Part shown: one piece after another, positions 49,143-62,800 of the stretch
Layout: each line of letters opens with the position of its first letter
Position numbering within the stretch: position 1 is the stretch's first letter
Assembly (NCBI GenBank): GCA_964454135.1
Contig: CAYVQL010000001.1
Location: forward strand, 84,977 to 148,976
Length of the DNA: 64,000 nucleotides
Source: an uncultured Enterobacterales bacterium
GTDB lineage: Bacteria; Myxococcota_A; UBA796; JAFGLY01
Direction: 5' to 3'
The notes under the pieces: generated by a model
Seen by the model: the letters and a program-made list of their open reading frames with translations, nothing else
What the model was told of the DNA's origin: nothing
Databases searched by the model: none
Position numbers and translations under genes: made by a program

Positions 49143-49181
49143 GGGTGTAGACTGGGGCCCGCCCGCTGAGAGGAGAGAGGC

Positions 49182-50693
49182 ATGAGAACCAGCGCCCTGC
49201 TCGTGTTCGTCGGCGCCGCCTGCGCCAGCTGCGACAACCTGGCCGAGGCGCCGGTGGCCGGCAGCCTGCTCGATGACCTGGGAATGCTGCCGCCTGCCAG
49301 CTCGACCTCCAGCGCCGAGCTGAGCGCACCGCCCGCGCGCCAGGGCAACCGCGTGCGCCTGCTCTACAACGGCGAGGCGGCTTTCGAGGCGCGCATGCAG
49401 CTGCTGGAGGAGGCGCAGCGCTCCATCTACGTCCAGGCGCTGATCTTCAAGGCCGACCAGACCGGCCGCGCCCTGGGGGACGCGCTGATCGCCCGCAAGC
49501 GCGCCACGCCGGAGCTGGACATTCGGGTGATCGTGGACGCCTACTCCAACGTGCAGGACGCCAAGGCCCAGCTGATGTACTTCGAGCTGAAGAACGCCGG
49601 CATCGAGGTGGAGGGCTTCGAGACGCTCTACCTGCACTGGTTGAACGAGATCAACCTGGCGGACTGGCTGGCGGGCAACAAGCGCTACCACGAGAAGTAC
49701 TTCGTGACGGATGGCAGCCGCGCCGTGGTGGGCGGCATGAACATCGGCGACGAGTACGCCCGCTGCTCGGCCGATCCCATCATGCGCTGGCGGGACCAGG
49801 ACGTGTACCTGGAGGGGGCCGTCGCCAGGGACGTGGAGCTGGCCTTTCTGGACAACTACGCCCAGTTCAAGGGCGTCAAGGACGCCAAGCCGACCCTCTT
49901 CAACACCGACGCCTACTGGAAGCTCTGGCTGGAGCTGAACCCGGGCATGGACGAGCTGTTGCAGCAGTCCCTGGACGCGGGCCGAGCCGTCAAGGAGCGG
50001 CTGCCCTGGTCCGAGCACGCGGTCTGCGTTGGCCAGCCCCTGCCGAGCGAGGTCCACGAGGACGTGGCCGTGCGCTTCATCCGCAATCGGCCCCGGCTGG
50101 GTGAGAGACACATCCCCCAGCTCTACCTGGACTTGATCGGTGCGGCCCAGCGGAGCGTGCTGGTCGAGAACGCCTACTTCGTGCCCAATCCGGACCTGCG
50201 CGCCGCTCTGATCGCCGCGGCCCAGCGTGGCGCGGCCGTCCAGGTGGTGACCAATAGCGCCGAAACCAACGACATCCCCATGATTACCCAGGCCGGCCGG
50301 GCGCACTACCTGGAGCTGCTCGACGGGGGCGTGCAGGTCTTCGAGTGGCACGGGGAGCGCCACGGCGAGGGCACGCTGCACGCCAAGCTGGCCGTCTTCG
50401 ATGAGCGCGTCGCCATAGTGGGTTCCTACAACCTGGACCCGCGCAGCGAGGGCCTCAACTCCGAGGACGTGGTGGTGATCACCGATCCGGCCGTGGCCAG
50501 CGAGCTGGCCCGCTTCGGGCGCGACAAGGATCTGCCCATGGCCGAGGCCATCAGCCGCATCGACGCGCTGCGCTGGGCCGACCCCATGAGCCTGCCCCAG
50601 CCGCCCGAAAAGCTGCCGCTGTGGTCCGATCCGCGCTTCGACCGCAAGGCCTTCGAGTTCATGCTGTTGCGGCAGATCGAGGGCAGCTTGTAG
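49182..50693 (+). CDS. Phospholipase D-family lipoprotein (two HKD motifs; cardiolipin-synthase-like).
   Basis: Lipobox GAACASC. HKD motifs YHEKYFVTDG and LHAKLAVFDERVAIVGSYNLDPRS. RBS AGGAGAGAGG. Confidence 0.85.
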   Translation: MRTSALLVFVGAACASCDNLAEAPVAGSLLDDLGMLPPASSTSSAELSAPPARQGNRVRLLYNGEAAFEARMQLLEEAQRSIYVQALIFKADQTGRALGDALIARKRATPELDIRVIVDAYSNVQDAKAQLMYFELKNAGIEVEGFETLYLHWLNEINLADWLAGNKRYHEKYFVTDGSRAVVGGMNIGDEYARCSADPIMRWRDQDVYLEGAVARDVELAFLDNYAQFKGVKDAKPTLFNTDAYWKLWLELNPGMDELLQQSLDAGRAVKERLPWSEHAVCVGQPLPSEVHEDVAVRFIRNRPRLGERHIPQLYLDLIGAAQRSVLVENAYFVPNPDLRAALIAAAQRGAAVQVVTNSAETNDIPMITQAGRAHYLELLDGGVQVFEWHGERHGEGTLHAKLAVFDERVAIVGSYNLDPRSEGLNSEDVVVITDPAVASELARFGRDKDLPMAEAISRIDALRWADPMSLPQPPEKLPLWSDPRFDRKAFEFMLLRQIEGSL

Positions 50694-50761
50694 GCGCAGG
50701 TATCGCTCGATGTGCAGCGGCTGCGGAGGAGAGCGGGAAGGCCGCCCGCGAGGGTGAACGC

Positions 50762-53374
50762 TCAGTGCTCCCCGAGGGCAACGAGGGGAGCCAGAGGCGC
50801 CGGTTCGTGCCGGAGTGGCTGCAGGCGGAGCTCCAGCGGCACAGGCAGCGTGGCGAGGTGCAGCTCGGGCGGACCGGGGAGGCCGGGCCTCAAGGGTGCT
50901 TCACCGTGCCCCGACTCCGGCTCTTCTAGGGTCAGGTACAGACTGAACTCATCCCCGCAGGTGGCGTAGTCGAAGCTGGGGCAGAACTCCACCTTCGAGC
51001 TGAATTCCTCCCCATCGTAGCCGTCGGGTGGCGTCTCGCAGTCCCCGCCTTGCATCACGAGGTCCACGGCGTTGTCCGCATAGCTGTTGCCTGAGAGTAG
51101 GGCCGAGGCCTTGTCCAGGAACAGGCCCGCGCCCAGACCGTCCAAGAGCTCGTTGTTCTCCAGCAAGAGGCCCGAGCTTCCGTCCCAGGCCGTCACGCCT
51201 TCCCCGGCGTAGACCGCGTCGCCGCACTTGGTCAGGCTCTGCCGGGTCCAGCCCTCTCCGCCTTGGATGGTGTTGTCGGTGAGTGAGTAGTTGCCTTCAC
51301 CGGAGAGCCAGACGCCGGCGATGGGATTGTCTTTGATCACGGTGTCGGTGACCGACAGGGATGGAGGGCCTCCCAACCAGGGCTCGGCGTAGATACCGAC
51401 GCCGCCACCGAGGTTCTCCTGCTCGGTGGTGCCTTCGATGTGGCACTCGGCGAGCTGGAGGACCGAATCGACCACCAGGACCGCTCCTGCGAACTGGTTG
51501 CTCTTGATCTCGCAACCCGAGCAGGTGAACTGGGTGCCTTCTCTCGTGACGTATATCCCGGGTCCGTCGTTCAAGGAGGCCTCGACGCCCGTCGCCACCA
51601 CAGATGCCCCGGACTCGGCGAATATGCCGGTGCCGACGGTGAAGAGCTCTCCGCGCTTCGTGGAGACGACCCTCGTATCCTGGAGGGTGACCGTGGTGTA
51701 TGAGCCGAATGCGATCACGCCCGAGGTGGTGTTCCCGATGACCTCGCAGGCCTCCGCTTCGAGGTTCGCGCCGAGGTAGACATCGATACCGTAGCCATGC
51801 TGCCCCTTCTCGTCTGGCTGAGTGTCCTCGATGGTGGTCTCTCTCAGAGTGACCGAGGTGCCGAGGTCATCTGCGACCACGCCCGCAGCGGTGTTCCTGG
51901 TGACCTCGCAGGCCTCCGCGTCCAAGCTCGCGCCGTTGTGGACGTAGATGCCGAGACCGAGCGAGCTTGTCTCGTCTGGCAGGGTGTCCTCGATGACAGT
52001 CTCTCTCAGGGTGACCGAGGTAGTGGAGTCGGATGCGGCCACTCCGGTAGTGGCGTTCCCTCTGACCTCGCAGCCTTCCGCGTCCAGGCTGGCACCATCG
52101 TAGACATAGATGCCGAGACCGAGCGAGCCGGTATCGTTGGGTCGGGTGTCCTCGATGGCGGTCCGCAAAAGGGTGATCGAGGTGCCGGAGTCGTACGCGA
52201 GCACACCCGCAGCGGTGTTCCCCTTCACCTCGCAGGCCTCCGCGTGCAGACACGCTCCCTCCTTGACTCGGATGCCATATCCGCCATCCTGGTTTCCATC
52301 GGGCTGGGTGTCCTCGATGGTGGTCTCCCTCAGGGTGACCGCGGTGCCGGAGTCGTACGCGAGCACACCCGCAGAGGTGTTCCCCCTCAGCTGGCAGGCC
52401 TCCGCGTCCAGGCTCGCGCCCTCCGTGGCCGTGATGCCGTATCCGTACGTTCCATCATCGTCGGGCTTGGTATCCACGATGGCGGTCCGCCGGAGGGTGA
52501 CCGAGGTGTCGGAGCCGACCGCGATCACGCCCCCTGCGGTGTTCCCCGTCAGCTCGCAGGCCTCCGCGTCCAGGCTCGCGCCATTGGTGATCTGGACTCC
52601 GTTCCCGTAGCCGCCTTTTTCGTCAGGCCGAGTGTCCTCGATGGTGGTCTGACGGAGGGTGATCGATGCGCCGGAGCCCTGTACGGCTGCACCCGCCGTG
52701 GTGTTCCCCTTCAGCTCGCAGCCCTCCATCGTGAGCGCGGCCGCATGGATCCCTGCCTGGTAGGCCCAGACACCGACGAACTCGTTCTCTACAACCTTCG
52801 AATCACGAAATGCCACGTTCCCCGATTCGACCAGCACCCCGATGTACGACGACCCGGTCACTGTCACGCCAGAGACCTCCACCTCCGAAGTGACGATGTT
52901 CGCAGCGATCCCCGGCGTGCTCTCGTTCCCTGAGCTGGCGTCGATGACGACCAGCTCGCTGCAGCGTCCAGCCAGGTGCACGCCGCCATGACCACGGCCC
53001 AGCTCCAGCGTCTCCGGGTAGGCCCCCGCCGCCACCGCCACCAGTCCGCCGTCCGCGTCACCCGCCACATCCAGTCCCGCCTGGATGGAGGTGAAGGGCG
53101 CGGACTCGCTGCCATCGCCACCTGCCGCAGCGGCGATGTCCACGTAGATCGTGCTCTCGTCCAGCTCCAGGTTCCCCCATGTGCCGGTTCCGCAGGCGGC
53201 GGGAACGCACACGCCGTCGTCGTCGAGGTGGCCGGTGTCGCAGCCGGGATCGCTGTCGGGCGCGGGGCCGGTGTCTTGGGTGGTGCCGCTGTCCTCCGTC
53301 GAGGGCCTCCCGCGCTTGTCCTTGTCACAGGCGAGGAGGTGGAGCGGGACGATGAGGGCGAGGGCGTGGCGCAA
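50762..53374 (-). CDS. Right-handed parallel beta-helix repeat lipoprotein.
   Basis: Seven or more tandem 53-54-aa units (GASLDAEACEVxGNTxAGVxAxDSGTSVTLRETTIEDTxPD...). Putative TTG start gives the lipoprotein signal (M)RHALALIVPLHLLAC. Confidence 0.7.
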   Translation of the reverse strand: MRHALALIVPLHLLACDKDKRGRPSTEDSGTTQDTGPAPDSDPGCDTGHLDDDGVCVPAACGTGTWGNLELDESTIYVDIAAAAGGDGSESAPFTSIQAGLDVAGDADGGLVAVAAGAYPETLELGRGHGGVHLAGRCSELVVIDASSGNESTPGIAANIVTSEVEVSGVTVTGSSYIGVLVESGNVAFRDSKVVENEFVGVWAYQAGIHAAALTMEGCELKGNTTAGAAVQGSGASITLRQTTIEDTRPDEKGGYGNGVQITNGASLDAEACELTGNTAGGVIAVGSDTSVTLRRTAIVDTKPDDDGTYGYGITATEGASLDAEACQLRGNTSAGVLAYDSGTAVTLRETTIEDTQPDGNQDGGYGIRVKEGACLHAEACEVKGNTAAGVLAYDSGTSITLLRTAIEDTRPNDTGSLGLGIYVYDGASLDAEGCEVRGNATTGVAASDSTTSVTLRETVIEDTLPDETSSLGLGIYVHNGASLDAEACEVTRNTAAGVVADDLGTSVTLRETTIEDTQPDEKGQHGYGIDVYLGANLEAEACEVIGNTTSGVIAFGSYTTVTLQDTRVVSTKRGELFTVGTGIFAESGASVVATGVEASLNDGPGIYVTREGTQFTCSGCEIKSNQFAGAVLVVDSVLQLAECHIEGTTEQENLGGGVGIYAEPWLGGPPSLSVTDTVIKDNPIAGVWLSGEGNYSLTDNTIQGGEGWTRQSLTKCGDAVYAGEGVTAWDGSSGLLLENNELLDGLGAGLFLDKASALLSGNSYADNAVDLVMQGGDCETPPDGYDGEEFSSKVEFCPSFDYATCGDEFSLYLTLEEPESGHGEAPLRPGLPGPPELHLATLPVPLELRLQPLRHEPAPLAPLVALGEH
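51300..52700. repeat. Roughly 160-bp tandem DNA repeats (seven or more units) inside the beta-helix gene.
   Basis: Recurring CGCAGCGGTGTTCC...CTCGCAGGCCTCCGCGTCCAGGCTCGCGCC blocks at about 51886, 52046, 52206, 52366 and 52526. Confidence 0.8.
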
Positions 53375-53610
53375 GTTCCTGGCCTGGACGACGAGCGAAC
53401 GAAGGAGAAGGTCGAAGTATGGCAGGCCCGAGAGGCGGAGTCGAGGTGCGCGGAGTGCCCTGAGAGTGCTGTGACCTGGAGGCCTCGGCGGCTGCCGCCT
53501 GTGGTCCGAGACGCGCTTCGACCGCAAGACCCTTGAGTTCATGCTGCTGTTGCGGACCGATGGCAACCAATAAGCCCCTGGCATCCCGGGGGATGCCAGG
53601 GGCCATCCGC

Positions 53611-54699
53611 TCAACCTTCACCCAGCGAGATCTTCCCCAGCAGCTCAGCCGGGCTGGCCACCAGGGTGATCTGACCGACGTTCTCGGCCATCTCCTTCAT
53701 GGCCTCCAGCTCCTTGAGGCGCATCAGGACCGGGCTGGACTGCAGCATGCGGGCCGTGTTCGCCAGGGAGCGCGTGGCCGCGGTCTCTTCGCGGCGGGCG
53801 ATCACGTTGGCGGCGGCGCGCTTCTCAGCCTCGATCACCTGGTTCAGGATGAGCTTCATCTCGCCGGGCAGCACCACGTCCTTCAGGTCCAGGGCCAGCA
53901 CCTCCACGCCCCAGCCCTGGGCGCGCTGGGCCAGCTCCTGGCTCATGGCGCCGGCCGCCTCCACGCGGCGCTCCAGCAGCTCGTCGACCTTGGCGCCGGC
54001 CACGGTGCGGCGGGCGATCAGCTGGGCCTCGGAGTACAGGGCGTCGCGCAGGTCGGCCACCGCGTGGGTGCTGGCCACGGGATCGGTGACGCGGAACTTG
54101 ACGATCAGGTTGACGCGCAGGCTGACCTTGTCGCCGGTCATCACCTCCTGGCCGGTGATCTGCAGCTCCTGCTCGCGCAGGTCCGCCAGCTCGAAGCGCA
54201 GCTGGCGGTCCAGGGCGTTCAGGGCGTGGACGCCCTCTTCCAGCTGGTCGGCCAGCTGGCCGTCCACGTAGACCAGGCAGCGCTCGTGGGGCTTGACGCG
54301 CAGCACCTGCAGGTGGGAGCGCGGCACCAGGGGCTGGAAGGCCGCCGGGATCTCGGAGCGCAGGGCGCCGGTGTCGTGCAGCTGAACCTGCACCTGACGG
54401 CGCAGCTGCCAGATCAGGTAGCGACCCGGCAGCAGGCAGTGGGCCGGCAGGCCGTCGCAGCGCAGCAGGGCCAGCTGCTCGGCGGTCACGTCCAGCAGCT
54501 CGGCGGCGCCTTCCGGCAGGATGGCCTGCAGCTCAGGGGTCCAGGGCGCGTAGCCCAGGTCCAGGTCGAAGTGCTCCACCTGGACGCGAGGGCCGGCGAA
54601 CCACAGGCGGTGCAGGCCGGGCTCGAGCCAGCGGATCAGCTGGCCGTTCTTCTTGACGACTGCGCGCTGGTGCGGGGCGACGATGACTTCGCGGTACAT
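53611..54699 (-). CDS. SPFH/band-7 (stomatin/prohibitin-like) domain protein with a roughly 140-aa N-terminal extension and no obvious TM helix.
   Basis: SPFH core LRVNLIVKFRV...ALDLKDVVLPGEMKLILNQVIEAEKRAAANVIARREETAATR. AGGAG RBS ahead of the ATG at 54699. The upstream part of the 946-aa ORF is rejected. Confidence 0.8.
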   Translation of the reverse strand: MYREVIVAPHQRAVVKKNGQLIRWLEPGLHRLWFAGPRVQVEHFDLDLGYAPWTPELQAILPEGAAELLDVTAEQLALLRCDGLPAHCLLPGRYLIWQLRRQVQVQLHDTGALRSEIPAAFQPLVPRSHLQVLRVKPHERCLVYVDGQLADQLEEGVHALNALDRQLRFELADLREQELQITGQEVMTGDKVSLRVNLIVKFRVTDPVASTHAVADLRDALYSEAQLIARRTVAGAKVDELLERRVEAAGAMSQELAQRAQGWGVEVLALDLKDVVLPGEMKLILNQVIEAEKRAAANVIARREETAATRSLANTARMLQSSPVLMRLKELEAMKEMAENVGQITLVASPAELLGKISLGEG

Positions 54700-55168
54700 G
54701 GGGAGCTCCTGATGAAGATGGGCCCGGGGGCCGAGGTCCGAAGGAGGCGCGCTGCGGGCCGGAGCCTGCTGCGCTGCCCTCCGGGTCGGCGGGGCGGGGC
54801 GGCCGGCGTGGAGGCCCGGTCCGAGGACGGGGACCCCGGCGGGCGCGGGGCCGTGCGGCGATGGGCATCGCCGCGGTGGCCTGCTCCGCCGCGGGCCGGC
54901 TGCTGTCACAGATCCGGGCCCGTCGGGCGTCTGTTGGGGTTTCCTTAGGGGGGAAGGTTCGGGTTTCAGCCGAATGAGCATCCACGCTCTCTCCAAAAGA
55001 GATCCAGGAGTCGAACCTGGGATTGTGCATGGGCCGAGACGCGGGACCCTTCCTTCGACGAGCCGAGCTTTGGCGAAGCAGCCGGTACCCGGTGACCCGA
55101 CCGGAGCTCCGACGCTGGCGCGGGAGTCCCTGGGGTCGCGTTCGAAAGAGCCGCTGGGTGACCATGCG
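54700..55168 (-). ncRNA. Candidate structured leader or ncRNA transcribed from the sigma-54 promoter, containing a tRNA T-arm-like element (possible Y-RNA/YrlA-like module).
   Basis: Minus-strand sequence tCCCAGGTTCGACTCCTGGatctctt (plus coordinates 55005..55021) matches the tRNA T-stem-loop consensus GGTTCGANTCC within a 5-bp stem. There is no convincing coding frame between the promoter and the SPFH start. Confidence 0.2.
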
Positions 55169-55180
55169 CCCCCCGTAGAA

Positions 55181-55196
55181 GCAAGCCGCGTGCCAG
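55181..55196 (-). promoter_or_regulatory. Sigma-54 (RpoN) -24/-12 promoter TGGCACGcggcTTGCT, oriented toward the SPFH gene and divergent from rtcR.
   Basis: Reverse complement of 55181..55196 reads TGGCACGCGGCTTGCT. GG and GC are separated by exactly 10 nt, as in the TGGCACG-N4-TTGCW consensus. Confidence 0.6.
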
Positions 55197-55324
55197 GGGC
55201 GCGAATAGACGGGAATTCTGTGGTGGAACCGCCGAAAGAGTTGGGAGAAGGTGCTGAAGGCTCGTTCTGTGAAGCTGGCGGGGCTTCCGCTCTCCCTGCC
55301 TCTTTCGCTTCCTGGTGATATATC

Positions 55325-55342
55325 TGTATCGTAAACGATACA
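55325..55342. promoter_or_regulatory. 18-bp AT-rich palindrome TGTATCGtaaaCGATACA immediately upstream of the rtcR start; candidate operator or activator-binding site.
   Basis: Perfect 7-bp arms with a 4-bp spacer. It sits in an unusually AT-rich 40-bp patch (GATATATC also present) 15 nt before the rtcR ATG. Confidence 0.35.
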
Positions 55343-55356
55343 TCTGGATAGTGTCC

Positions 55357-57006
55357 ATGTCCGTACGCAAGCCCCTGGTCGTCTTCGGCATGCTGGGCAC
55401 GCGCCTGGATCAGGGGCGACGGGCGCGCCGCTGGACCAAGTGGCGTCCCACCGTCTGCGCCGTGCAGCAGCCCGAGCTGCCCGTGGCGCGCTTCGAGCTG
55501 CTCTTTCCGCCCGACCACCAGGGCCTGGCCAAGGGCGTGGCCGACGACATGCTGCAGCTGCGCCCCCATATGGAGCTGCAGCTGCATCCCTTCCCGCTGC
55601 GGGATCCCTGGGACTTCGAGGAGGTCTTCGGCGCGCTGCTGGACTTCGCCCAGGCCACGGACTTCCAGCCCGAGCGCGAGGACTACCTGCTGCACATCAC
55701 CACGGGGACCCACGTCTTTCAGATCTGCTGCTTCCTGCTGGCCGAGTCGGGGCATTTCCCGGCCCGCTTGCTGCAGACCGAGCCCCTGCGCCCCCCACGC
55801 GGGCCCGATGGCAAGCGCCAACCCGATCCCGGCCGCGCGCGCGTGATCGACCTGGATCTTTCGCGCTACGACGCCATCGCCGCCCGCTTCTCCGAGCAGC
55901 GGCGCGACGCCCTGTCCTTCCTCAAGGCCGGCATCGACACCCAGAACAAGGCCTTCAACGCGCTCATCGAGCGCATCGAGCGCGTGGCGCGCGCCTCGCG
56001 CGATCCCATCCTGCTGATGGGCCCCACCGGGGCGGGCAAGACGCGCCTGGCCAGCCGCATCGCCGAGCTGAAGCTGCGCCTGCAGCAAGGGGCCAGCGGC
56101 CAGTTCGTGCAGGTCAACTGCGCCACGCTGCGGGGCGACGCCGCCATGTCGGCCCTGTTCGGCCATGTGCGCGGCGCCTTCACGGGCGCGCTGCAGGAGC
56201 GAGCCGGCCTGCTGCGCAGCGCCGACGGCGGCGTGCTCTTCCTGGACGAGATCGCCGAGCTGGGGCCGGACGAGCAGGCCATGCTGCTGCGGGCCATCGA
56301 GAGCGGGCGCTTCACGCCCCTGGGCAGCGACCGCGAGGTGCGCAGCCGTTTTCAGCTGATCGCTGGCACCAACCGCGACTTGCAGCGCGCCGTGGCCGAG
56401 GGGCGCTTCCGCGACGACCTGCTGGCGCGGCTGGACCTGTGGACCTTTCACCTGCCCGGCCTGCGGCAGCGGCCCGAGGACATCCCCCCAAACCTGGACT
56501 ACGAGCTGAACCGCATCACGCGCGAGACGGGCCGGCGCGTGACCATGAACGCCGAGGCCCGGGCGCGCTTTCTGGAATTCGCCTGCTCCGCCCAGGCCAG
56601 CTGGAGCCGCAACTTCCGCGACCTGAACGGCGCCATGCGCCGCATGGCCACCCTGGCCGAGGGCGGACGCATCGACCAGGGACAGGTGGAGGAGGAGATG
56701 GCGCGGCTGCTGCGCGCTTGGACGGTGCCCGGCGCCAGCGCGCAGCCGGATGTCCTGCGCCGGCTGCTGGGCGCGGAGCGCCTGGCGCAGCTTGACCGCG
56801 TCGAGCAGGTGCAGCTGGCCGAGGTGGTGGCCGTCTGCGGCCGCAGCGCGAGCCTGGCGGCCGCCGGACGAGCCCTCTTCGCCGCCTCGCGCCAGCAGCG
56901 CCGCAGCGTCAATGACGGCGATCGCCTGCGCAAGTACCTGGCGCGCTACGGGCTGAGCTGGGCTGGGCTCAATCCGGAGGCTCCCTCAGCGCCGACGTCA
57001 CCGTGA
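55357..57006 (+). CDS. rtcR: RtcR-family sigma-54-dependent transcriptional activator (N-terminal CARF-like sensor domain, AAA+ sigma-54 interaction domain, C-terminal HTH).
   Basis: N-terminus VVFGMLGTRLDQGRRARRWTKWRPTV (RtcR/CARF-type). Walker A GPTGAGKT. Sigma-54 contact motif GAFTGA. Walker B LFLDEI. C-terminal DRLRKYLARYGLSW. Confidence 0.85.
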   Translation: MSVRKPLVVFGMLGTRLDQGRRARRWTKWRPTVCAVQQPELPVARFELLFPPDHQGLAKGVADDMLQLRPHMELQLHPFPLRDPWDFEEVFGALLDFAQATDFQPEREDYLLHITTGTHVFQICCFLLAESGHFPARLLQTEPLRPPRGPDGKRQPDPGRARVIDLDLSRYDAIAARFSEQRRDALSFLKAGIDTQNKAFNALIERIERVARASRDPILLMGPTGAGKTRLASRIAELKLRLQQGASGQFVQVNCATLRGDAAMSALFGHVRGAFTGALQERAGLLRSADGGVLFLDEIAELGPDEQAMLLRAIESGRFTPLGSDREVRSRFQLIAGTNRDLQRAVAEGRFRDDLLARLDLWTFHLPGLRQRPEDIPPNLDYELNRITRETGRRVTMNAEARARFLEFACSAQASWSRNFRDLNGAMRRMATLAEGGRIDQGQVEEEMARLLRAWTVPGASAQPDVLRRLLGAERLAQLDRVEQVQLAEVVAVCGRSASLAAAGRALFAASRQQRRSVNDGDRLRKYLARYGLSWAGLNPEAPSAPTSP

Positions 57007-57403
57007 AGCTGCCGCTGCCCGTGGCCACCAGCCGGCCACGCTCGTTCCGCACCTCCATCTCGGCCGTGCTCAGGCGCCTGCCCAGGTTCACCAGCCTGCC
57101 GCGCGCCACCAGCTCCTGCTTTGCGACCGGGCGGTGCAGGCGCACGTGGAACTCCACGGTGGCGATCCAGGTCTCGAAGTAGGGTGCCACGGTGAACCAG
57201 CCGGCGTTGTCCAGCATGGTGGCGATGGCGCCGCCGTGGGTCTGGCCCAGGGCGTGGTCCAGGGCCGGGTTGTAGGGCATGCGGAAGACGGCCTGCGCGC
57301 CCTCGTAGGAGAGGCGCATGCCGAAGTGGCGGCCGATGGGGGCGTGTTGGTTGAAGAGCTCCAGCAGCTCTGCCCGGCGCGCGGCGTGATCCCTCGCAGT
57401 CAT
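56969..57403 (-). CDS. PaaI-family hotdog-fold thioesterase.
   Basis: GQTHGGAIATMLDNAGW motif. AGGAGAG RBS. Confidence 0.75.
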   Translation of the reverse strand: MTARDHAARRAELLELFNQHAPIGRHFGMRLSYEGAQAVFRMPYNPALDHALGQTHGGAIATMLDNAGWFTVAPYFETWIATVEFHVRLHRPVAKQELVARGRLVNLGRRLSTAEMEVRNERGRLVATGSGSFTVTSALREPPD

Positions 57404-57427
57404 GGACTCTCCTGGCTCTGCAGCAGC

Positions 57428-58288
57428 CTACCAGGCCGCGCTCAGGCCCATCATGGGGGTGCCGTCCGTCGAGACCGCGCTGCTGACGACCAGGCGCTCG
57501 CTGCGGTGCAGCTCGGGCACCAGGATGCCCACGCCGGCCCCCAGCAGGCCGCCCACCATGACGTCCGTGGGGAAGTGCTTGTGGGCTCGCACCCGCAGGG
57601 CGCCGGTCCAGACGGTGATGCCCGCCGCTCCCAGGTAGGGCAGCGCCTCCAGCTGCCAGGCCCAGTCCTGGGTGATGCCCAGCGTATGGGCCAGGGCGAA
57701 GGACCAGGCGCCGGCGGTGGAGGTGTGGCCCGAGGGGAAGGAGAGCTGGGCTTCGCAGTCCACGGGTTGGTCGTTGGCGACGGCTTCGTCGTAGGCGGCG
57801 CGCCACTCCTCACTGTAGGCGAAGGGCCGCGGGCGGCGCACGGCGTGCTTGACGAGGTGGGTGATGTTCTGGCTGATGGTGATGGCCTCCAGGCCCACCA
57901 CGGCGTAGGTGCCGGAGCGGGCCAGCCGGGCCCGGCCGCTGTCCGCAGTCCGCAGCAGGCCGTAGGCGCCCAGCACCAGGGGCAGGGCGTAGCTGGGGTA
58001 GATGCCCGTGATGTCCGAGAGCAGATCCGGCCCTTCGCCGTCGATCTCGGACAGCCCGGCGTAGCGCGCGTCCAGCCCCAGCTCGGGCTCTCCCGGGGGG
58101 TTCTGCTCCACCCAGGGCGACTCGCCGCCGAACATGGTGGCGAAAGTGTAGGCGCCGGAAAACAGCGCCACCGGGGCGTCCGTCCAAGGATTCAGGCGCA
58201 GGTCGGGCTCGGGCTCGCTCGCGGGCTCGGCCGCCATGGCCAGGGCAGGACAGAGCAGGAGGGCGAGTGAAAGAAGGAGAAGAGGCAT
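57428..58288 (-). CDS. Secreted PAP2-superfamily phosphatase.
   Basis: Signal peptide MPLLLLSLALLLCPALAMA. PAP2 motifs KHAVRRPRP, PSGH, SRVRAHKHFPTD. Confidence 0.8.
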   Translation of the reverse strand: MPLLLLSLALLLCPALAMAAEPASEPEPDLRLNPWTDAPVALFSGAYTFATMFGGESPWVEQNPPGEPELGLDARYAGLSEIDGEGPDLLSDITGIYPSYALPLVLGAYGLLRTADSGRARLARSGTYAVVGLEAITISQNITHLVKHAVRRPRPFAYSEEWRAAYDEAVANDQPVDCEAQLSFPSGHTSTAGAWSFALAHTLGITQDWAWQLEALPYLGAAGITVWTGALRVRAHKHFPTDVMVGGLLGAGVGILVPELHRSERLVVSSAVSTDGTPMMGLSAAW

Positions 58289-58429
58289 GGCACACCTTGG
58301 AGGGGCGTCGAGCCGCGCCGCCATGGACACCGGCGGCTCGAGCGACACCAACGTAGCGCGGCCGTCCAGCCGAATCCCGGGGTCTGCTACACTCGTTCTC
58401 CCCTCCTGGCCCATCCCGAGGTCAACGCC

Positions 58430-59878
58430 ATGCTCGCCCTGTCCGCCCTGCTCGCGCTCTCCCTCGTCCCCGACGCCGCGGCCCTGGAGGACGAGTCGCT
58501 GCGGGCCCGCAGCTCTTTCGGCTTGTTCCGCGATCCCTACGACTATTTCGCCCAATCCGCCTGGCTGGTGCGCCAGCCCGGGCGTCACCTGTACACCGTG
58601 CTGGCCGAGCCCGGCGAGCAGGGCTGGCTGGGCGGCGGCTACCTGGGCCCGGTGGGCTTCGGCGTGCTGGCGACCCGCGTGGGCGGCGCGCTGAGCAGCC
58701 AGCGCGTGATCGACAGCCAGGTGGCGCCCAAGCGCGAGTCCTTCACCGAGAGCTATCTGGAGCACCGCCAGCTGCAGGCCTCCCTGGGGTGGGGCATCCC
58801 GGTCAACGAGCGCCTGGCCGTGGGCGTCGGCCTGGACGCCGCCTTCCTGCGGGAGCGCTACTCCCTGGCCGCCGATGCCGAGTCCGGCGTGAGCCTGCTG
58901 GGCGACACCCACGAGAGCCTGGAGGAGGGCGTGCAGGTGGCGCTTGATGGGGGCTCGGCCACGTTGGACATGCGGCGCATCGGCGGGTCGGTGGGCCTGG
59001 CCCTGGGCAGCCCCGAGGAAGGGGGCGTGGAGATCGGCGTCACGCTGGCGCAGCGCAGCGCGGTCCCCACCGCAGAAGCCGGGGTCGCGGACCAGGACGA
59101 GGAGAGCGGCGAGTTCACGAACTCCTACGCCTACGAGGGCTACTACCCGGATGCGGGCCTACAGGTGAACCATGTCATCTGGCTGCCCGGTCTGCGGGCG
59201 GACGGCTTGGTCCCGGTGGGCGAGCGGGCGGGCTTGAGGCTGATGGCCGAAGCCCAGGGAGGCAAGGGCCGACCGGCGCTCTACTCGGCCACCGAGGCCT
59301 TCCTGCAGGACGGCGCCTGGCTGGTGCGCGAGGAGCGCATCGAGAACCCCTGGCTGGGCGTGCTGGACATGAACCTCCTCGTGGCGCTGCAGCTGCAGCG
59401 CGAGGCGCTGGCCTTGCGCGTAGGCCTGCAGGGGCGGGCCGATCTGACCACCTGGTGGCTGGACAGGATCGTCTACGAAGACGAGGAGCTGCAGCAGAAC
59501 GACAGCTACCAACAGCTGCAGGCCGACGATCGCTGGAGCATGAGCCTGCCCCTGGTACTGGAGAGCGCGCTGACCGAGCGCTGGACCCTGCGCTGCGGCG
59601 CCCGCTTCACCTTTCTCTACGACTACTGGGAGGATCGTGACGGCAGCGCCGAGGGCGACGTCATCGTCGAGCAGAGCGCCACCAGCTCCTACGCCGACCT
59701 GGCCCTGGGCCTGCGCTTCCAGCCCCACGAGGCGGTCACCCTGGAGACGGCCTTTGCCGGGCGCGGATCGGCCTGCGATCCGGACGCCGAGAACCTGCAG
59801 CTGGGAGAGATCTGCCAGGGCCAAGCCCTGCAGCTGGATCTCTCCAGCGTCTCCATCAGCGCCGTCTTCCACCTCTGA
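58430..59878 (+). CDS. Secreted protein, probably an outer-membrane beta-barrel.
   Basis: Signal peptide. Alternating amphipathic beta-strand pattern. C-terminal ...SISAVFHL. Confidence 0.5.
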   Translation: MLALSALLALSLVPDAAALEDESLRARSSFGLFRDPYDYFAQSAWLVRQPGRHLYTVLAEPGEQGWLGGGYLGPVGFGVLATRVGGALSSQRVIDSQVAPKRESFTESYLEHRQLQASLGWGIPVNERLAVGVGLDAAFLRERYSLAADAESGVSLLGDTHESLEEGVQVALDGGSATLDMRRIGGSVGLALGSPEEGGVEIGVTLAQRSAVPTAEAGVADQDEESGEFTNSYAYEGYYPDAGLQVNHVIWLPGLRADGLVPVGERAGLRLMAEAQGGKGRPALYSATEAFLQDGAWLVREERIENPWLGVLDMNLLVALQLQREALALRVGLQGRADLTTWWLDRIVYEDEELQQNDSYQQLQADDRWSMSLPLVLESALTERWTLRCGARFTFLYDYWEDRDGSAEGDVIVEQSATSSYADLALGLRFQPHEAVTLETAFAGRGSACDPDAENLQLGEICQGQALQLDLSSVSISAVFHL

Positions 59879-59898
59879 TCCTCCCCGGGGAGCGGATC

Positions 59899-62800
59899 AT
59901 GCCTGCCCTCGCCGCCTTCATCGCGTCCAGCCTGGCCTTTCTGGCCGGCAGCGCCCACGCCCAGGACGCCGACCCCTTCGTCTGTGGCCAGGTCAGCGGC
60001 ATGCAGACGGAGCTGGATGAGGGCTTCGAGTACCGCATCTCGGCCTTCCTCTGGTACGAGCCGGCCGGCGCCTCCACCCGCGTGGAGCTGGCCACCCTGG
60101 ACGCCGAGCAGGGCCTGGCTCTCAACCCCACGGCCTGGGGCGAGCTGCTGGACGGGGATTTCGGCCTGCAAGGCGACCAGGGCCTGGACTACGACCCCGA
60201 GCATGAGGGCCCGCTCTTCGTGGCCACGCTGCCGGCCCCGGCCCACGACCTGCGGCTGGAGACCGATCGCGGCGAGCTGACCGTCCGCCTGCCCGACACC
60301 CGCGACCTGCGCTTCGGCGCGGCCTTCGCGGTGGCCGACGACGGCGCCACCTACTGGGCGGAGCAGGACCACGACGGCCTGTCCGTCGAGGACCGCCTGG
60401 ACTGGGACGACGCCCTGGCGGACGAGCACCTGGCGCGCGCCGCCCATGAGGCAGCCGGCGACCCGGGCGCCCCCGACGACGCTCAGCCCCTGGAGCTGGC
60501 GGCCGCCAAGCGCTCCACCTGGGCCTACGCCGCCGATCCCGCGGGCGCCTCTCTGCGCCTGGGCAAGCCCGACGGCAGCTCCATCGAGCCCGAGGAGGTG
60601 CCCGCGCTCTTCGGCACGTACTTCGACGTGCTGGACGAGGGCGTGTCCGTGGGCTCATCCCGCTGGCAGGGCGCCACGGGGCGCGCCTTCCCCTTGTCTG
60701 CGCAGTTCCAGGATCTGTCGGACTGCAGCGGCTGGCCCGAGGTGGAGGTCAAGCCCGGCGTGCTGGCGGTGGATCCGCGCTACGGGCGCTTCGCCTTCTC
60801 CCAGGGGCGGCCCGAGCAGGATCCCGAGCTGGCAGGTCACTTCCACCAGCACTGGAACGCCCCCAACTCGCTGCAGGTCTACGGCGATCGCGCCTGGTTC
60901 ACCCTCGGCGAGAGCGACGCCTCTTTCGTGATGGTCGACATCTCCGACCCCGCGGCGCCCCAGCTGGCGGGCATGGCCGACGCCGGCTGGGCCTACGGAT
61001 CCGTGCTGGCGGAGGGCTGCGCCCATGTCTGGGGCAAGAGCGGCATCGTCAGCTTCGACATCAGCGACGAGTCCGCCCCGCGCGCCACCCAGTGGCTGGA
61101 GCACGACTGGGGCGTGCCCGGCGCCGTCTGGCAGGACGGCGAGCTGCTGGTGGCCAGCTACGCCGAGGGCCTGGTGGTCTTCGACATCACCAACCCCGCC
61201 CATCCGCGGGTGCTGGACGATGCGCGCCTGCGCATCAACGACGAGCTGCAGGCCTGGAGCAACACGACCTGTTGGCCCGTCTCCACCAACCTGGCCATCG
61301 CGCCCGTCTCCGAGCCCGAGAAGGAGCACAGCCACGAGGCGCTGCGCCTGTACGACATCAGCGATCCCTTCAGTCCCCAGCTGCTCTCCACCATCCACTA
61401 CGCCGACAAAGAGGTGGAGCTGGGGCCCGTCTGGGTGGATCGCACCGAGAACGCCATGTTCCTGGGCACGGTGGGCGACGGGCTCAAGCTGGTGGATCTG
61501 AGAGATCCTACCGAGCCCCTGGTGGAGACGCTGCGGCGCGAGTACGACGTGGACAGCGAGGACGAGATCCAGTGGGTCGACCGCAGCACGGGCCTGGGCG
61601 AGGTGGGCGGCGTGCTCTACGAGTCGGGCAGCTACGGCTGGCTGGATGCGAACCGCGTGCCCCCCTGGGACGGGCGCAGCATCTCCTACCTGCGGGCTTG
61701 GGACATCAGCGATCCCCTCAACCCGGAGCTCTTGCAGGTCAGCACCGACGCCTCCACGGTGGGCTGGCTGGGCTCGCTGGCCGAGGCCGATGAATTCGCC
61801 GTCGCCGCGGAGTCGGGCTACGGCCTGCGCCTGCTGGATCCGGCCGCCGAGGATCCCTTCGACTACATGGGCGGCTACCTGGCGGCGGGCCAGACCACCG
61901 ACGTGGAGGTGGCTGGGGACATCGCCCACATCAGCGGCTACCTGGGGGGCGGCATCACCGCCGTGGACATCTCGGATCCCAGCCAGCCCGTGCAGGTGGG
62001 CTACGCCCACCACGGGCTCGACACCTACGGCATCGCCCTGAAGAGCACGGGGGAGGGCAGCTGGGTCTACGCCTCGGGCAAGTCCAGGTTGCCCTGGTTC
62101 GAGGGCGAGAGGTGGCGCTACACCGAGGTCACGGTCCACGACTTCGCCGATCCCGGCGCGCCGGTGGAGCTGGGTCAGGGCACGGGTGACTTCCACCTCG
62201 TGGCGGACAGCTCCGGCGATCTGCTGTGGGCCGACTGCAACCTGTGGGACATCTCGGATCCGGCGGATCCCATCCAGCTCAATGAGAAATGTGTCCTGGG
62301 AGGCCAGGCTGCGGCCTTCATGGACGGCGTGCTGGTCTATGGCGGCGGTGGCACCGAGCTGTCTGGCGGCTACCTGGACGAGGGCAAGGCCATCCGGGCC
62401 TTGGTGATCTACGACGTGGGCATCCCGGCGGCCTCGCTGCTGCTCTCGCTGCAGGAGGTGCCCGACTCCGTGGGCGGCGTGCTCTCCACCAACGTCGCCC
62501 TCCGCGGCGAGAAGGCCTACTTCGTCAACGGCGTGGGCGTGGTCGAAGCGGACGTGAGCGATCCCCGTGAGCCGGTCCGGACCGACTACCTGGTCATCGA
62601 CTCCTGCCCCGAGGGCGACCCCGAGTCCCTGGACGTGGCGGGCGATCATCTCTACGTGCAGTGCCAGCATTGGACCGTGCTGGTCTACGACATCAGCCAG
62701 GGCCTGGCCGAGGCCGTGGAGCTGGGCGCCCTGGAGAGCCATGTCGGGGAGATCACCAAGCTGAGCGGCTACCAGCTGCTCTCGGCCACCGCCAACGGAC

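Follow-up and report, generated by a model that had tools for sequence, protein, structure and literature searches.

A predicted circularly permuted tRNA-like RNA in the RtcR-associated sigma-54 leader of a Band-7 gene

Introduction

Which kind of RNA, if any, is encoded by a leader that carries a mimic of the tRNA T arm behind an RtcR-associated sigma-54 promoter, at a locus that has no Ro gene? In Salmonella, Y RNAs are located behind an RtcR-dependent sigma-54 promoter (PMC7790460); the elements of YrlA follow each other in the order V-T-AS-D, and its tRNA-like domain is defined by the T stem-loop, a closed acceptor-like stem-loop (AS) and the D stem-loop (Chen et al. 2014, PMC4201824). Binding by Rsr/Ro60, modification by TruB/DusA and being a substrate of RNase P are further traits of YrlA-type Y RNAs. 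[quoted passage not shown] A first-pass annotation of the DNA analysed here (the window, i.e. the whole stretch of 64 kb) had interpreted the T-arm mimic as a possible YrlA-like module without an Rsr/Ro gene or, alternatively, as a tRNA 3'-fragment scar of an old integration site.

Results

The rtcR gene (55357..57006, plus strand) encodes a sigma-54 enhancer-binding activator with an N-terminal RtcR/CARF domain (Pfam RtcR, 2.5e-68; Sigma54_activat, 7.8e-47), whose score of 745 bits with the NCBIfam equivalog model RNA_repair_RtcR passes the cut-off of 650. Divergent from this gene and on the minus strand, the sequence TGGCACGCGGCTTGCT (55195..55180) is a perfect sigma-54 consensus (GG at −24, GC at −12) and the sole exact match to it in the window; transcription would start at approximately 55169, as judged by the standard spacing from the −12 element. 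The promoter is kept in the alignment with the relatives L086 and L089, as is the arrangement of an RtcR (CARF and AAA+) that diverges from a −24/−12 promoter, and in these two closest relatives the order of divergent rtcR, RNA and Band-7 gene is retained as well. The T-arm mimic was thus correctly assigned to a leader 3' of an RtcR-associated sigma-54 promoter: it is positioned approximately 150 nt downstream of the latter, and in seven related loci a sigma-54-like site is found 119–175 nt 5' of the T arm, with 0–5 of 200 shuffles scoring equally.

Neither rtcB nor rtcA is part of the promoter's output at the window locus. tblastn searches revealed no homologue of TROVE/Ro (query: the TROVE protein of L086, E<=1e-6) or of RtcB in the 64 kb window, which bears out the earlier statement on the missing Ro gene, and no RtcA was found in this stretch either. 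RtcRs of 60–62% identity adjoin rtcB instead, the promoter being followed by RtcB (and RtcA) in L155 and L156; the unusual point of the locus is therefore that, as far as gene order can tell, RtcR drives an RNA and a Band-7 gene where the nearest RtcR homologues drive rtcB. Since no RtcR was detected near other Band-7 loci (tblastn of RtcR, 80 genome loci), this linkage is specific to the clade and no trait of the family. It is represented by three independent sequences only (the window, L086 and L089): P0121, the fourth RtcR of the 71% group, was left out, and L087 (a run of N) and L083 (an assembly chimera at a poly-G/poly-C run) were not counted as independent evidence.

According to the comparative alignments, the leader encodes a predicted structured RNA of approximately 230 nt that consists of two parts, a 5' domain and a permuted tRNA-like domain (all parts on the minus strand). 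In the 5' domain, a predicted long-range helix (P1) encloses a bulged helix with the motifs CAGCGG and GUCCCGCR-NN-UCGG. The 5' strand of P1, GCAUGG (55167..55162), pairs with the 3' strand CCAUGC (55032..55027), which closes the domain, in the RNAalifold structure of the window, L086 and L089; the pairing is kept by differing sequences in L089 (GUGCAUGG/CCAUGCGC), L106 (CGCGGACGA/UCGUCCGCG) and L001 (GCUGG/CCAGC). The GCGG of the CAGCGG motif (55156..55151) pairs with the CCGC of the GUCCCGC motif: GCGG does not vary among the 18 seed sequences, RNAalifold pairs columns 35–38 with columns 145–148, and L002 possesses a double change at this helix (GUGG/CCAC). The P2 arm (55150..55048), the outer stem of which (CUUUCGA/UCGAAGG) is present in the MFE fold, is of variable length and holds in the window a lineage-specific insertion of approximately 33 nt in comparison with L086 and L089 (alignment A2). 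The 3' strand of the bulged helix and the UCGG make up the motif GUCCCGCG-UC-UCGG (55047..55034), for which alignment A7 has invariant G-U-(C)-C-C-G-C and U-(C)-G-G columns and which is aligned with high posterior probability by the covariance model R2 (see below). The alternative that P1 and P2 belong, as D and anticodon arms, to an initial tRNA-like element of standard order was dropped because P1 closes before the T arm, a topology that does not fit; the vertebrate Ro site GGUCCGA resembles GGUCCCGC too weakly for the likeness to be used.

The second part of the RNA is, in its predicted succession of T arm, closed acceptor-like hairpin, D arm, anticodon-like arm and small variable-like hairpin, a circularly permuted tRNA-like domain. 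Its first element is the T arm CCAGG-UUCGACU-CCUGG (55020..55004) with a 5-bp stem and the canonical T loop; the corresponding DNA, CCAGG-TTCGACT-CCTGG followed by ATCTCTT (55003..54997), is indeed present on the minus strand as originally reported. Taken alone, the motif is only modestly improbable (GGTTCGANTCC has one copy in the 64 kb window versus 0.07 expected, and at least one copy occurred in 7 of 100 shuffles); the comparative data lift it far above chance. The T arm is invariant in the alignment with L086 and L089 and identical between loci whose proteins share only 62% identity, and the T helix (helix 1 of alignment A6) is paired in 98% with covariation of three of its five pairs. 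The heptamer ATCTCTT had been considered an acceptor-like 3' strand; instead, it supplies the 5' strand of a closed hairpin (UCUCU/GGAGA or UCUCU/AGAGA) that covaries in relatives. This acceptor-like hairpin, UCUCU-UUU-GGAGA (55002..54990; in the other register UCUCU-UUUGG-AGAGA, ending at 54988), is both the local MFE structure and the centroid, and covaries in the subgroup (L086: CCUCAU/AUGAGG; L089: CCUCA/UGAGG) as well as family-wide (7/7 pairs, 98% of cells paired); because the window stem is short (5 bp versus 7), it is deleted by the covariance model R1 in its alignment.

The earlier claim that no D or anticodon arm can be formed holds true for the sequence upstream of the T arm, but both are present downstream of it. 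The D arm GAGC-GUGGAU-GCUC (54989..54976) carries the GG of the D loop, is the local MFE structure and is aligned by R1 to the D arm of the model; in the family the D helix is paired in 88%, and all four pairs covary. The anticodon-like arm UUCGG-CUGAAAC-CCGAA (54974..54958) has 5 bp and a 7-nt loop with U33, a purine at position 37 and the "anticodon" GAA; all five pairs covary in alignment A6 (e.g. L089: CACGG/CCGUG; L003: CUCGA/UCGAG; L005: UCGGA/UCCGA). The weakest part, which was read from the sequence, is the small variable-arm-like hairpin CCUU-CCCCCCU-AAGG with its A/C-rich tail (54957..54943): a hairpin and an A-rich tract are situated 3' of the anticodon-like arm in many relatives (L012, L018, L024, L039, L023, L005, L002 and L089), and the hairpin is absent in L086. 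The local MFE structure of the window segment consists of exactly the four hairpins T, acceptor-like, D and anticodon-like, with a weak local z of −0.87. The window copy is degenerate in that its acceptor-like stem has 5 bp only and both the linker at positions 8–9 and the CCA are missing; judged by its short acceptor stem and the lack of CCA, the window RNA is a diverged member of its family. The remainder of the leader (54942..54700) is GC-rich and ends in the ribosome-binding site AGGAG (54710..54706).

Both domains were evaluated by covariance models from whose seeds the window was left out. Model R1 comprises the T, acceptor-like, D and anticodon-like elements of 12 other loci; an alignment of all 24 elements by MAFFT had misplaced the members with a reduced D arm, with three seeds off by 1–2 columns, hence the 12-sequence seed to which the remaining elements were realigned by the model. 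R1 matches 54956..55025 (minus strand) over its full length with 30.2 bits (E approximately 3.5e-8), the next best match in the window reaching 13.9 bits; as tandem tRNA genes in arrays also score, R1 is not specific by itself. Model R2 (5' domain and T arm) matches 55004..55095 with 32.9 bits (E approximately 6e-5) and, in addition, the non-seed relatives L006, L086, L089, L003 and L009. Among 31 aligned homologues, 92.8% of the cells are paired, compared with 60% in shuffles and 34–49% with slid partners, and double changes occur in 19 of 21 pairs, i.e. the comparative alignment called for by the first-pass annotation revealed a covarying structure in relatives. RNAalifold on the window, L086 and L089 independently gives P1, the GCGG/CCGC helix and the T, acceptor-like and anticodon-like helices. 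When the elements were computationally un-permuted, ARAGORN recognized a full-length tRNA in 17 of 26 (5 of 130 shuffled controls); the un-permuted RtcR-linked relative L086 was called Phe-GAA, and the un-permuted window copy obtained no call. About half of the family loci examined are permuted (24 permuted versus 25 standard forms).

The absence of a significant covariance-model match, which had been named beforehand as an argument against a Y-RNA-like module, was indeed found with Rfam: cmscan of the whole window, of 6 kb and of a 321-nt slice (E<=10 on the slice) yielded no tRNA, Y RNA or other relevant match, in distinction from the clear match of the purpose-built R1. The tRNA model cannot accommodate the order of a permuted tRNA, and the Rfam result is for this reason not evidence of absence. 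ARAGORN predicted no tRNA gene in the window, so that the element is not a tRNA gene by either program, as had been stated. A sequence-only search proved too weak, since nhmmer with the core of the window, L086 and L089 reached RtcR-linked loci only. MFE folding of the whole leader was uninformative (473 nt, z = −1.68; 230 nt, z = +0.85, i.e. no more stable than shuffles) and failed to reproduce the tRNA-like fold.

The conserved partner of the RNA is a Band-7/SPFH (slipin/stomatin-like) gene (54699..53611, minus strand) with a product of 362 aa (Pfam Band_7, 6.6e-28; 1387 homologues) for which no membrane segment was predicted and which is taken to be cytosolic. Its AF2 model (pLDDT 85) consists of two N-terminal beta repeats, the SPFH domain and a long helix; with Foldseek matches to stomatin, HflK/C, prohibitin and major vault protein, the predicted structure is akin to those of cage-forming SPFH proteins and of major vault protein. 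The window RNA is co-oriented with this gene and located 259..470 nt upstream of its start (54699), no conserved terminator being found between the two. In loci fetched by Band-7 protein homology alone, the T-arm motif was present on the same strand at −750..−100 in 69 of 77, compared with 1/77 on the opposite strand and 5/73 in the downstream region. Conversely, a DNA-only scan of metagenomes gave 27 R2-positive loci, with Band-7 in all 24 that had room downstream. The distance from the RNA to the co-oriented Band-7 gene is 182–647 nt in the family, and the place of the RNA with respect to the promoter and the gene does not change between Myxococcota, Planctomycetota, Gammaproteobacteria, Acidobacteriota and others.

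In the window, Band-7 is followed by the gene of a secreted beta-helix protein. RtcB adjoins 11 of 80 family loci, e.g. L043 with the order two tRNA-likes, Band-7, RtcB. TROVE was encountered among 151 loci on the contig of L086/L088/L094 only, where two RNA-plus-scaffold modules (Y-like RNAs with Rsr; permuted RNA with Band-7) flank rtcR and no rtcB is present. Many related loci lie beside arrays of tRNA genes; the acceptor loop starts with N-C-C-(A) in 13 of 30 family members, as if a tRNA 3' end were followed by the 5' end of the next tRNA, and the tRNA-like genes of the gammaproteobacterial loci resemble ordinary, separately processed tRNAs.

Discussion

Based on the covariation, the R1 match and the Band-7 linkage, the window RNA is placed in the Band-7-associated tRNA-like class (b7a-tRNA/YrlA-like, the former as cited in 10.1101/312249) and not among the Ro-type Y RNAs. 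The complete reading, a permuted tRNA-like RNA that forms a module with Band-7 and would act as a ribonucleoprotein (RNP) in tRNA repair, is given a probability of roughly 0.7. In common with the b7a-tRNA system as outlined in that text, a tRNA-like non-coding RNA immediately precedes a Band-7/SPFH gene in the same orientation, and the window Band-7 protein is homologous to Band-7 proteins encoded next to RtcB (e.g. in L043); the window RNA differs from this outline by its circular permutation, the closed acceptor stem, the extra conserved 5' domain, and the lack of RtcB in the operon and the 64 kb window. The likeness to YrlA (PMC4201824; Wang et al. 2018, 10.1101/312249) concerns the order of T arm, closed acceptor-like stem-loop and D arm, the canonical T loop, the GG of the D loop and the RtcR/sigma-54 operon context known from Salmonella. 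The proposal of a YrlA-like module can therefore be retained for topology and promoter, but not in the sense of a Ro-type Y RNA that merely lacks Rsr: the partner gene is Band-7, with no Ro60/TROVE gene within approximately 4 kb on the same strand, and the 5' bulged-helix domain (CAGCGG ... GUCCCGCR-NN-UCGG) is distinct. Moreover, the 5' and 3' ends of YrlA pair as a substitute of the anticodon stem, whereas the window RNA has a local, covarying hairpin of 5 bp and 7 nt at this place and its 5' end is engaged in P1 with the sequence just upstream of the T arm.

Compared with the RtcR operon described in 2020 (PMC7790460), the locus shares the equivalog-level RtcR, the divergent sigma-54 promoter, an RNA-plus-scaffold output and, presumably, the response to damaged tRNA; it differs in that the output consists of RNA and Band-7 only. 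The combination of a small structured RNA with a protein of N-terminal beta repeats, a "shoulder"-like SPFH domain and a long helix recalls the vault (major vault protein and vault RNA), and Foldseek aligns 390–450 columns of the Band-7 model to the major vault protein; this likeness is one of the predicted model, the Band-7 protein being much smaller (362 aa, two repeats) and similar in sequence to stomatin. Cyanidioschyzon merolae and some archaea possess permuted tRNA genes, in which the T arm and the 3' strand of the acceptor (the 3' half) come before the acceptor 5' strand, the D arm and the anticodon arm (the 5' half); functional tRNAs arise from them via a circular intermediate and the splicing endonuclease. 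The window RNA has its two halves in this order as well, but its breakpoint is at the variable/T junction, its acceptor is degenerate and there is no sign of decoding. It possesses all four arms of an authentic tRNA in permuted order, in contrast to the succession acceptor-D-anticodon-variable-T-acceptor with a 7-bp acceptor (5 bp in the window) that is expected by Rfam RF00005 and ARAGORN, neither of which called it. A functional permuted gene for a decoding tRNA-Phe(GAA), matured by circularisation or trans-assembly, would account for the full set of arms and for the many un-permuted relatives that are valid to ARAGORN, some of which encode NCCA; given the 5-bp acceptor stem and the missing CCA and nucleotides 8–9 of the window copy, together with "anticodons" that vary freely among close relatives (GAA, GAG, GUA, GUU, CGA and others), it is most improbable, and to our knowledge no bacterial maturation pathway for a permuted pre-tRNA exists.

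A genuine Ro-type YrlA, with Rsr/Ro60 encoded elsewhere in the genome and Band-7 as a passenger, is an unlikely explanation. The order of T arm, closed acceptor and D arm is common to both RNAs, the RtcR/sigma-54 control corresponds to that of the Salmonella rsr-yrlBA-rtcBA operon, a TROVE/vWA_Ro60 gene is located approximately 1 kb beyond rtcR in L086, and the window RNA contains GUCGAAGG, which fits the putative Ro-binding motif GNCGAAN0-1G found near the 5' end of YrlA. This motif is, however, present in 2 of 19 family members, the rate of chance (6.6% expected), and kept neither in L086 nor in L089; because the anticodon equivalent is a closed hairpin, a terminal stem for a Ro site is missing. 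The Ro gene of L086 has its own sigma-54 promoter and two tRNA-like RNAs of its own directly upstream, and the family tracks Band-7 rather than TROVE, which is restricted to the one contig among the 151 loci and is not encoded in the window.

The T arm was the only site flagged by a simple terminator scan, so that the hairpin with its U-rich tail (CCAGGUUCGACUCCUGG AUCUCUUUUG) might be taken for an intrinsic terminator or attenuator; with a stem of 5 bp only, a 7-nt loop that is the canonical T loop conserved family-wide, and a U tract that is missing in L086 (CCUCAUGUUG) and L089 (ACCUCACCCC) next to an invariant hairpin, this is scarcely credible. Hardly more can be said for a functionless relic, be it a tRNA 3' fragment that an integration event once left behind, as suggested by the first-pass annotation, or a decayed tandem tRNA pair. 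Attachment sites often are tRNA 3' ends, and the N-C-C-(A) of 13/30 members and the neighbouring tRNA arrays would suit such a descent; but all four helices are maintained by compensatory changes across 31 sequences, the position towards promoter and gene is fixed across phyla, and the T arm is identical despite a protein identity of 62%. Tandem-tRNA ancestry is plausible as the origin of the element, not as its present state.

Of low probability, and compatible with the RNP reading, is a predominantly cis-acting role of the leader, which would control the Band-7 mRNA as a sensor or decoy instead of yielding a stable trans-acting RNA: an anticodon nuclease that cuts the anticodon-like loop, for example, or a tRNA-recognising factor that binds to the leader would alter the stability or translation of the mRNA or return a cyclic-phosphate fragment to RtcR. 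The RNA is always part of the leader 5' of Band-7 and has the orientation of this gene, no conserved terminator separates the two, and a cut in the loop would release a 3' end of the shape "acceptor 5' strand-D arm-anticodon 5' half", the known RtcR ligand shape. Against this, operon-embedded tRNA-like RNAs coexist with protein genes in Salmonella and L086 and are processed to stable RNAs in the former, the gammaproteobacterial tRNA-like genes look like ordinary, separately processed tRNAs, and covarying alternative structures that sequester the ribosome-binding site are not in evidence.

In the favoured reading of a tRNA-like RNA that cooperates with Band-7 as an RNP, tRNA damage would generate 5' tRNA halves ending in a 2',3'-cyclic phosphate; the ligand of RtcR has the shape of acceptor 5' strand, D arm and anticodon 5' half (PMC7790460). 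The RNA and the Band-7 mRNA would be produced as one transcript, from which the tRNA-like RNA is probably excised by tRNA-processing enzymes, by analogy with the Y RNAs of rsr-yrlBA-rtcBA. Together with the oligomeric Band-7 protein of the vault/stomatin type it would then form an RNP which, displaying a tRNA shape, may recruit or organise tRNA-handling or repair enzymes on damaged tRNA in the manner of Ro60-Y RNA; RtcB encoded elsewhere, CCA-adding enzyme, RNase P and PNPase are candidates. In the window lineage, this predicted module of RNA and Band-7 occupies the position of rtcB next to the closest other RtcRs. An extension of this scheme, itself quite improbable, is that the permuted leader serves beyond its role as scaffold partner as a cis-encoded signal generator, i.e. 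a built-in damage sensor and amplifier: a tRNA-shaped bait would be cut in its anticodon-like loop by the anticodon nucleases that attack the cellular tRNAs, and the order T-acceptor-D-anticodon implies that the 5' cleavage product would end in acceptor 5' strand, D arm and anticodon 5' half with a 2',3'-cyclic phosphate. Such a product would have the ligand shape recognised by the CARF domain of RtcR and could exert positive feedback on the sigma-54 promoter; the same cut would sever the Band-7 mRNA, which religation by RtcB would restore.

Modules of b7a-tRNA and Band-7 were predicted about a decade ago and are still predictions in the literature searched. The present locus and approximately 50 relatives provide a concrete secondary structure supported by covariation, and roughly half of the family is permuted like YrlA, yet with a closed anticodon arm and a 5' domain of its own that looks suited to protein binding. 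Should the module turn out to be ordinary, the practical gain would be a search model for an RNA class that is missed by Rfam and tRNA finders. In the window lineage, RtcR, which senses broken tRNAs, appears to drive the pair of RNA and Band-7 only; this naturally occurring two-gene system allows one to ask whether a tRNA mimic and a cage of the stomatin/vault type assemble into an RNP in response to tRNA damage, and which role such a particle may have without an adjacent ligase.

Sequence context of the T arm

On the minus strand, the leader between the sigma-54 promoter and the Band-7/SPFH gene contains GGGTCCCGCGTCTCGGCCCATGCACAATC, followed by CCAGG TTCGACT CCTGG (a 5-bp stem closing the TTCGACT loop, 55020..55004) and by ATCTCTTTTGGAGAGAGCGTGGATGCTCATTCGGCTGAAACCCGAACC; GGTTCGANTCC occurs once in the window (expected: 0.07). 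The promoter upstream of the T arm is a perfect sigma-54 -24/-12 consensus (TGGCACGCGGCTTGCT, 55195..55180) and the sole match in the window. Its neighbors are the divergent rtcR (55357..57006, plus strand; Pfam RtcR and Sigma54_activat), whose product passes the NCBIfam equivalog cut-off (745 versus 650 bits), and, as next minus-strand gene, the Band-7/SPFH gene (54699..53611; 362 aa). ARAGORN called no tRNA in the window, Rfam searches gave no relevant match for the T-arm region at any threshold used, and RtcB and TROVE homologues were not detectable within the 64 kb. The T arm, the sigma-54 promoter and the RtcR association had been correctly described in the first-pass annotation.

The leader possesses an extra hairpin at 54892-54922 (minus strand; CGGGCC(C)GG ... 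CCGGCCCG, loop AUCUGUGACAGCAG), the GACAG loop sequence of which is kept in the comparison locus L086, too. The gene following Band-7 (50762-53614, minus strand) encodes a protein of approximately 870-950 aa with right-handed beta-helix repeats (Pfam Beta_helix, NosD) and TLRETTIEDT-like repeats; since it is not conserved beside Band-7 in relatives, it is probably unrelated to the RNA and Band-7 module. Positions 46911-63999 are 100% identical over 17,089 bases to the JGI metagenome contig Ga0105000_1002328, and the locus is absent from the species-representative genomes of the genome collection, where the best Band-7 match is 54% identical.

A permuted tRNA-like domain

The two closest Band-7 homologues (62-63% identity; loci L086/L088 and L089) retain the arrangement of rtcR, divergent leader and Band-7. 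An alignment of three leaders (window, L086, L089) revealed a conserved sigma-54 promoter, conserved GCGG and GUGUCCCGCGnUUCGGCCC blocks and an invariant T arm; the hairpin directly 3' of the latter varied in sequence with its pairing maintained (closed acceptor-like hairpin, AS: UCUCU/AGAGA in the window, CCUCAU/AUGAGG in L086, CCUCA/UGAGG in L089), and was succeeded by a small arm whose loop reads GUGGAU/GUGGAA and by a 5-bp stem with 7-nt loop (UUCGG-CUGAAAC-CCGAA in the window, CACGG-CUGAGAA-CCGUG in L089). Folded in isolation, a 71-nt window segment gave an identical MFE and centroid structure of exactly four consecutive minus-strand hairpins: the T arm (CCAGG-UUCGACU-CCUGG, 55020..55004), AS (UCUCU-UUU-GGAGA, 55002..54990), a D arm (GAGC-GUGGAU-GCUC, 54989..54976) and an anticodon-like arm (UUCGG-CUGAAAC-CCGAA, 54974..54958); thermodynamic folding of the whole leader lent no support to the proposed structure. 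Relative to a tRNA, these elements (T arm, closed acceptor, D arm, anticodon arm) are circularly permuted. The D and anticodon arms, which the first-pass annotation considered impossible to construct, are both found downstream of the T arm; its claim is correct for the upstream side only.

A covariance model of this structure (R1; 12 seed loci excluding the window and its two closest relatives) matched the window over its full length at 54956..55025 (minus strand; 30.2 bits, E ~3.5e-8), nearly coinciding with the site of the first-pass annotation, with 13.9 bits for the second-best match across 64 kb. In the alignment of 31 elements, which was fitted to R1 and from which the covariation counts derive, standard pairs made up 92.8% of pair cells (60.0 ± 1.4% with shuffled partners, 34-49% with slid partners), both-sided changes occurred in 19 of 21 pairs, and the closed acceptor stem covaried at each of its seven pairs (pairing 98%). 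R1 also scores junctions between a T arm and the next tRNA within tRNA gene arrays and, thus, cannot alone tell permuted elements from tandem tRNAs; these are separated by the tetraloop- or short-loop-capped closed acceptor stems and by the missing upstream 5' half and missing downstream T arm. When elements were un-permuted (acceptor 5' strand, D and anticodon arm joined to T arm and acceptor 3' strand), ARAGORN called 17 of 26 as full-length tRNA compared with 5 of 130 controls with shuffled D/anticodon arms; the L086 element became tRNA-Phe(GAA), and the window copy was not called because its acceptor-like stem comprises only 5 bp.

In the R1-based alignment, the acceptor-hairpin loop starts with N-C-C-(A) in 13 of 30 permuted elements (e.g. 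L009:3645, L005:3701, L018:2041). By its sequence, this start corresponds to an encoded discriminator plus CCA, a feature that the window copy lacks; RNase P and 3' trimming of such elements could yield two-piece, nicked tRNA-like molecules.

Linkage to Band-7

Of 80 genomic loci fetched solely via alignment of Band-7 homologues, 77 extended far enough upstream to be scored. The T-arm motif (5-bp stem/TTCRANN) was present on the same strand 100-750 nt upstream of Band-7 in 69 of these (median 409 nt), compared with 1/77 on the opposite strand, 5/73 in a downstream and 8/65 in a far-upstream window. At this upstream site, approximately one half of the loci have an ordinary-looking tRNA according to ARAGORN or Rfam, the anticodons being assorted (L043: two tRNA-likes, Band-7, RtcB). 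The remaining loci are chiefly from Myxococcota, among them the window's nearest relatives, and have no tRNA called upstream of Band-7; inspection of their sequences revealed the permuted order seen in the window. Their usual features are a closed acceptor stem of 6-7 bp without mismatches, U8-R9, a D arm of canonical form and an anticodon arm of 5 bp and 7 nt in which U33 and a purine 37 are present.

In many loci, some 10-25 tRNA genes are arrayed immediately ahead of the tRNA-like RNA and Band-7, upstream of position ~3500 (L011, L017, L042, L044, L057, L066, L076; also L051, L060, L063, L073), which suggests joint movement of the module and such arrays, possibly as part of mobile elements. 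Some related contigs contain assembly artefacts (L083:7780-8001; L089:5690-5760; L087:2325-2335): the identity of L083 to the window ends 156 nt before the Band-7 start, where the sequence switches at a poly-G/poly-C run, and the leaders of L089 and L087 are interrupted by homopolymer and N runs.

The 5' domain

A second module upstream of the T arm is common to the window and its relatives: a long-range helix (P1), (C)AGCGG, a variable-length arm, and G-UC-CCGC-R-NN-UCGG. In the window, P1 pairs GCAUGG (55167..55162) with CCAUGC (55032..55027, minus strand); its counterparts are GUGCAUGG/CCAUGCGC in L089, CGCGGACGA/UCGUCCGCG in L106 and GCUGG/CCAGC in L001. The GCGG-CCGC pairing, replaced by GUGG/CCAC in L002 (a double change), leaves a conserved two-nucleotide bulge. 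RNAalifold, supplied with the three RtcR-linked leaders and no structure, recovered P1, GCGG/CCGC, T, AS and the anticodon-like arm.

When metagenome contigs were scanned at the DNA level alone for GTCCCGCRNNTYGG-N(8-38)-GGTTCGANTCC, 60 loci were obtained. Of these, 27 were accepted as true members by R2, a further model that covers the 5' domain and T arm and was built from 18 seeds without the window. All 24 R2-positive loci with downstream room possess a same-strand Band-7 homologue 200-400 nt further on (the remaining three stop at a contig edge); the linkage is obligate. R2 also matched the window (55004..55095; 32.9 bits, E ~6e-5) and the non-seed relatives L006, L086, L089, L003 and L009. 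In the distant Band-7 clade represented by L092, one long hairpin comes after the 5' domain and T arm, and neither a D nor an anticodon arm is present; the most widely kept core thus appears to consist of 5' domain and T arm. In this clade (L092, L099, L107, L120, L135, L136, L140, L151, and L097, L103, L113, L143), the hairpin runs straight into the RBS and Band-7 identity is 31-36% over the SPFH domain only. The 5' domain could not be assigned to a known motif; in appearance, its bulged helix between invariant flanks suggests a site of protein binding.

Regulation by RtcR and sigma-54

The window, L086, L089 and L001-L004 each have a sigma-54-like site that precedes the T arm by 119-175 nt (score equalled by 0-5 of 200 shuffles). 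RtcR adjoins the RNA only in the window, L086 and L089, i.e. in three independent sequences; only three RtcR homologues reach 71% identity, two being those of L086 and L089. The RtcRs of the next tier (60-64%; Archangium, Hyalangium, others) are divergent beside rtcB, in Archangium also rtcA; in the small clade of the window, the RNA and Band-7 module therefore holds the rtcB position. Examples with 60-62% identity are a metagenome contig (L155:3664-6650) and Archangium minus CP043494 (L156:2378-7638; order rtcB-x-rtcA).

In L086, the other flank of rtcR carries a second perfect sigma-54 promoter (CCTGGCACACCCCTTGCAAT) and two tRNA-like RNAs (L086:2750-3060, minus strand), then a TROVE/vWA_Ro60 (Rsr) gene (L086:1128-2744, minus strand); this Ro module has RNAs of its own. 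One is a standard-order tRNA-like whose anticodon arm carries a ~50-nt insertion (Rfam tRNA, 43 bits); the other has the T arm GTGGCGTTCGAATCGCCAC. rtcR thus lies between two RNA-plus-scaffold modules, and rtcB is absent from the 13 kb contig.

Relation to Y RNAs and other readings

YrlA, the bacterial Y RNA type proposed in the first-pass annotation, is defined by a 5' GNCGAAN0-1G motif preceding the stem-loops V, T, AS (closed acceptor) and D and by ends that pair into a stem in place of the anticodon stem, and is encoded at most 4 kb from Ro60 (Chen et al. 2014, PMC4201824). The window RNA shares the T-AS-D topology and the RtcR/sigma-54 regulation of the proposed module; in contrast, its partner is Band-7 instead of a neighboring Ro gene, the Ro motif is no more frequent in the family than expected by chance (2 of 19 members), and no terminal stem is formed by its ends, so that the reading as a true Ro Y RNA retains topology and regulation but not the partner. 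According to Wang et al. (10.1101/312249), YrlA occasionally adjoins Band-7, this and related predictions being given there as not validated. With the Band-7-associated tRNA-like RNA (b7a-tRNA; predicted by Burroughs & Aravind in 2016) as described there, the window RNA has the defining Band-7 linkage in common, but differs in lacking authentic tRNA order and an adjacent RtcB; a literature search found no later work on b7a-tRNA or on SPFH with RtcB. The T-arm finding is real and explained: the RNA is a variant of a class known from prediction.

Further rival readings, all less probable, are a cis-acting sensor or decoy, a relic, a terminator and a functional permuted tRNA. The window copy is degenerate (acceptor stem of 5 bp, CCA and 8-9 linker absent). 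The identity of the window RNA as a permuted tRNA-like partner of Band-7 is assigned a probability of approximately 0.85.

The Band-7 protein and a possible mechanism

Inspection of the Band-7 protein revealed no hydrophobic segment; its nearest sequence relative is stomatin. The AlphaFold model (pLDDT 85) comprises two N-terminal beta repeats, the SPFH domain and a long helix, and Foldseek retrieved SPFH proteins that form cages (stomatin, HflK/C, prohibitin and erlin) together with the major vault protein (390-450 aligned columns). In residues 1-133 (54301-54699, minus strand), the N-terminal 130 form two beta-strand repeats resembling the first SPFH-region strands; in the model, repeats, SPFH domain and long helix would be arranged like a miniature major vault protein. 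These features are compatible with, though no proof of, an oligomeric scaffold in the cytosol that carries the RNA, and the predicted scaffold can be likened to vaults and Ro as RNA-carrying scaffolds.

The analysis establishes the type of promoter, which regulator is present, how the RNA is built and conserved, and that it is linked to Band-7. A function as RNP cofactor is proposed tentatively, and with somewhat less than even confidence, from established RtcR biology (Hughes et al., PMC7790460, for the RtcR ligand) and the analogy to rsr-yrlBA-rtcBA. Cyclic-phosphate tRNA halves would induce the module, and the RNA would be co-transcribed with Band-7 and then processed; a Band-7-RNA particle would assemble, in which the tRNA mimicry may engage tRNA-handling or repair enzymes.
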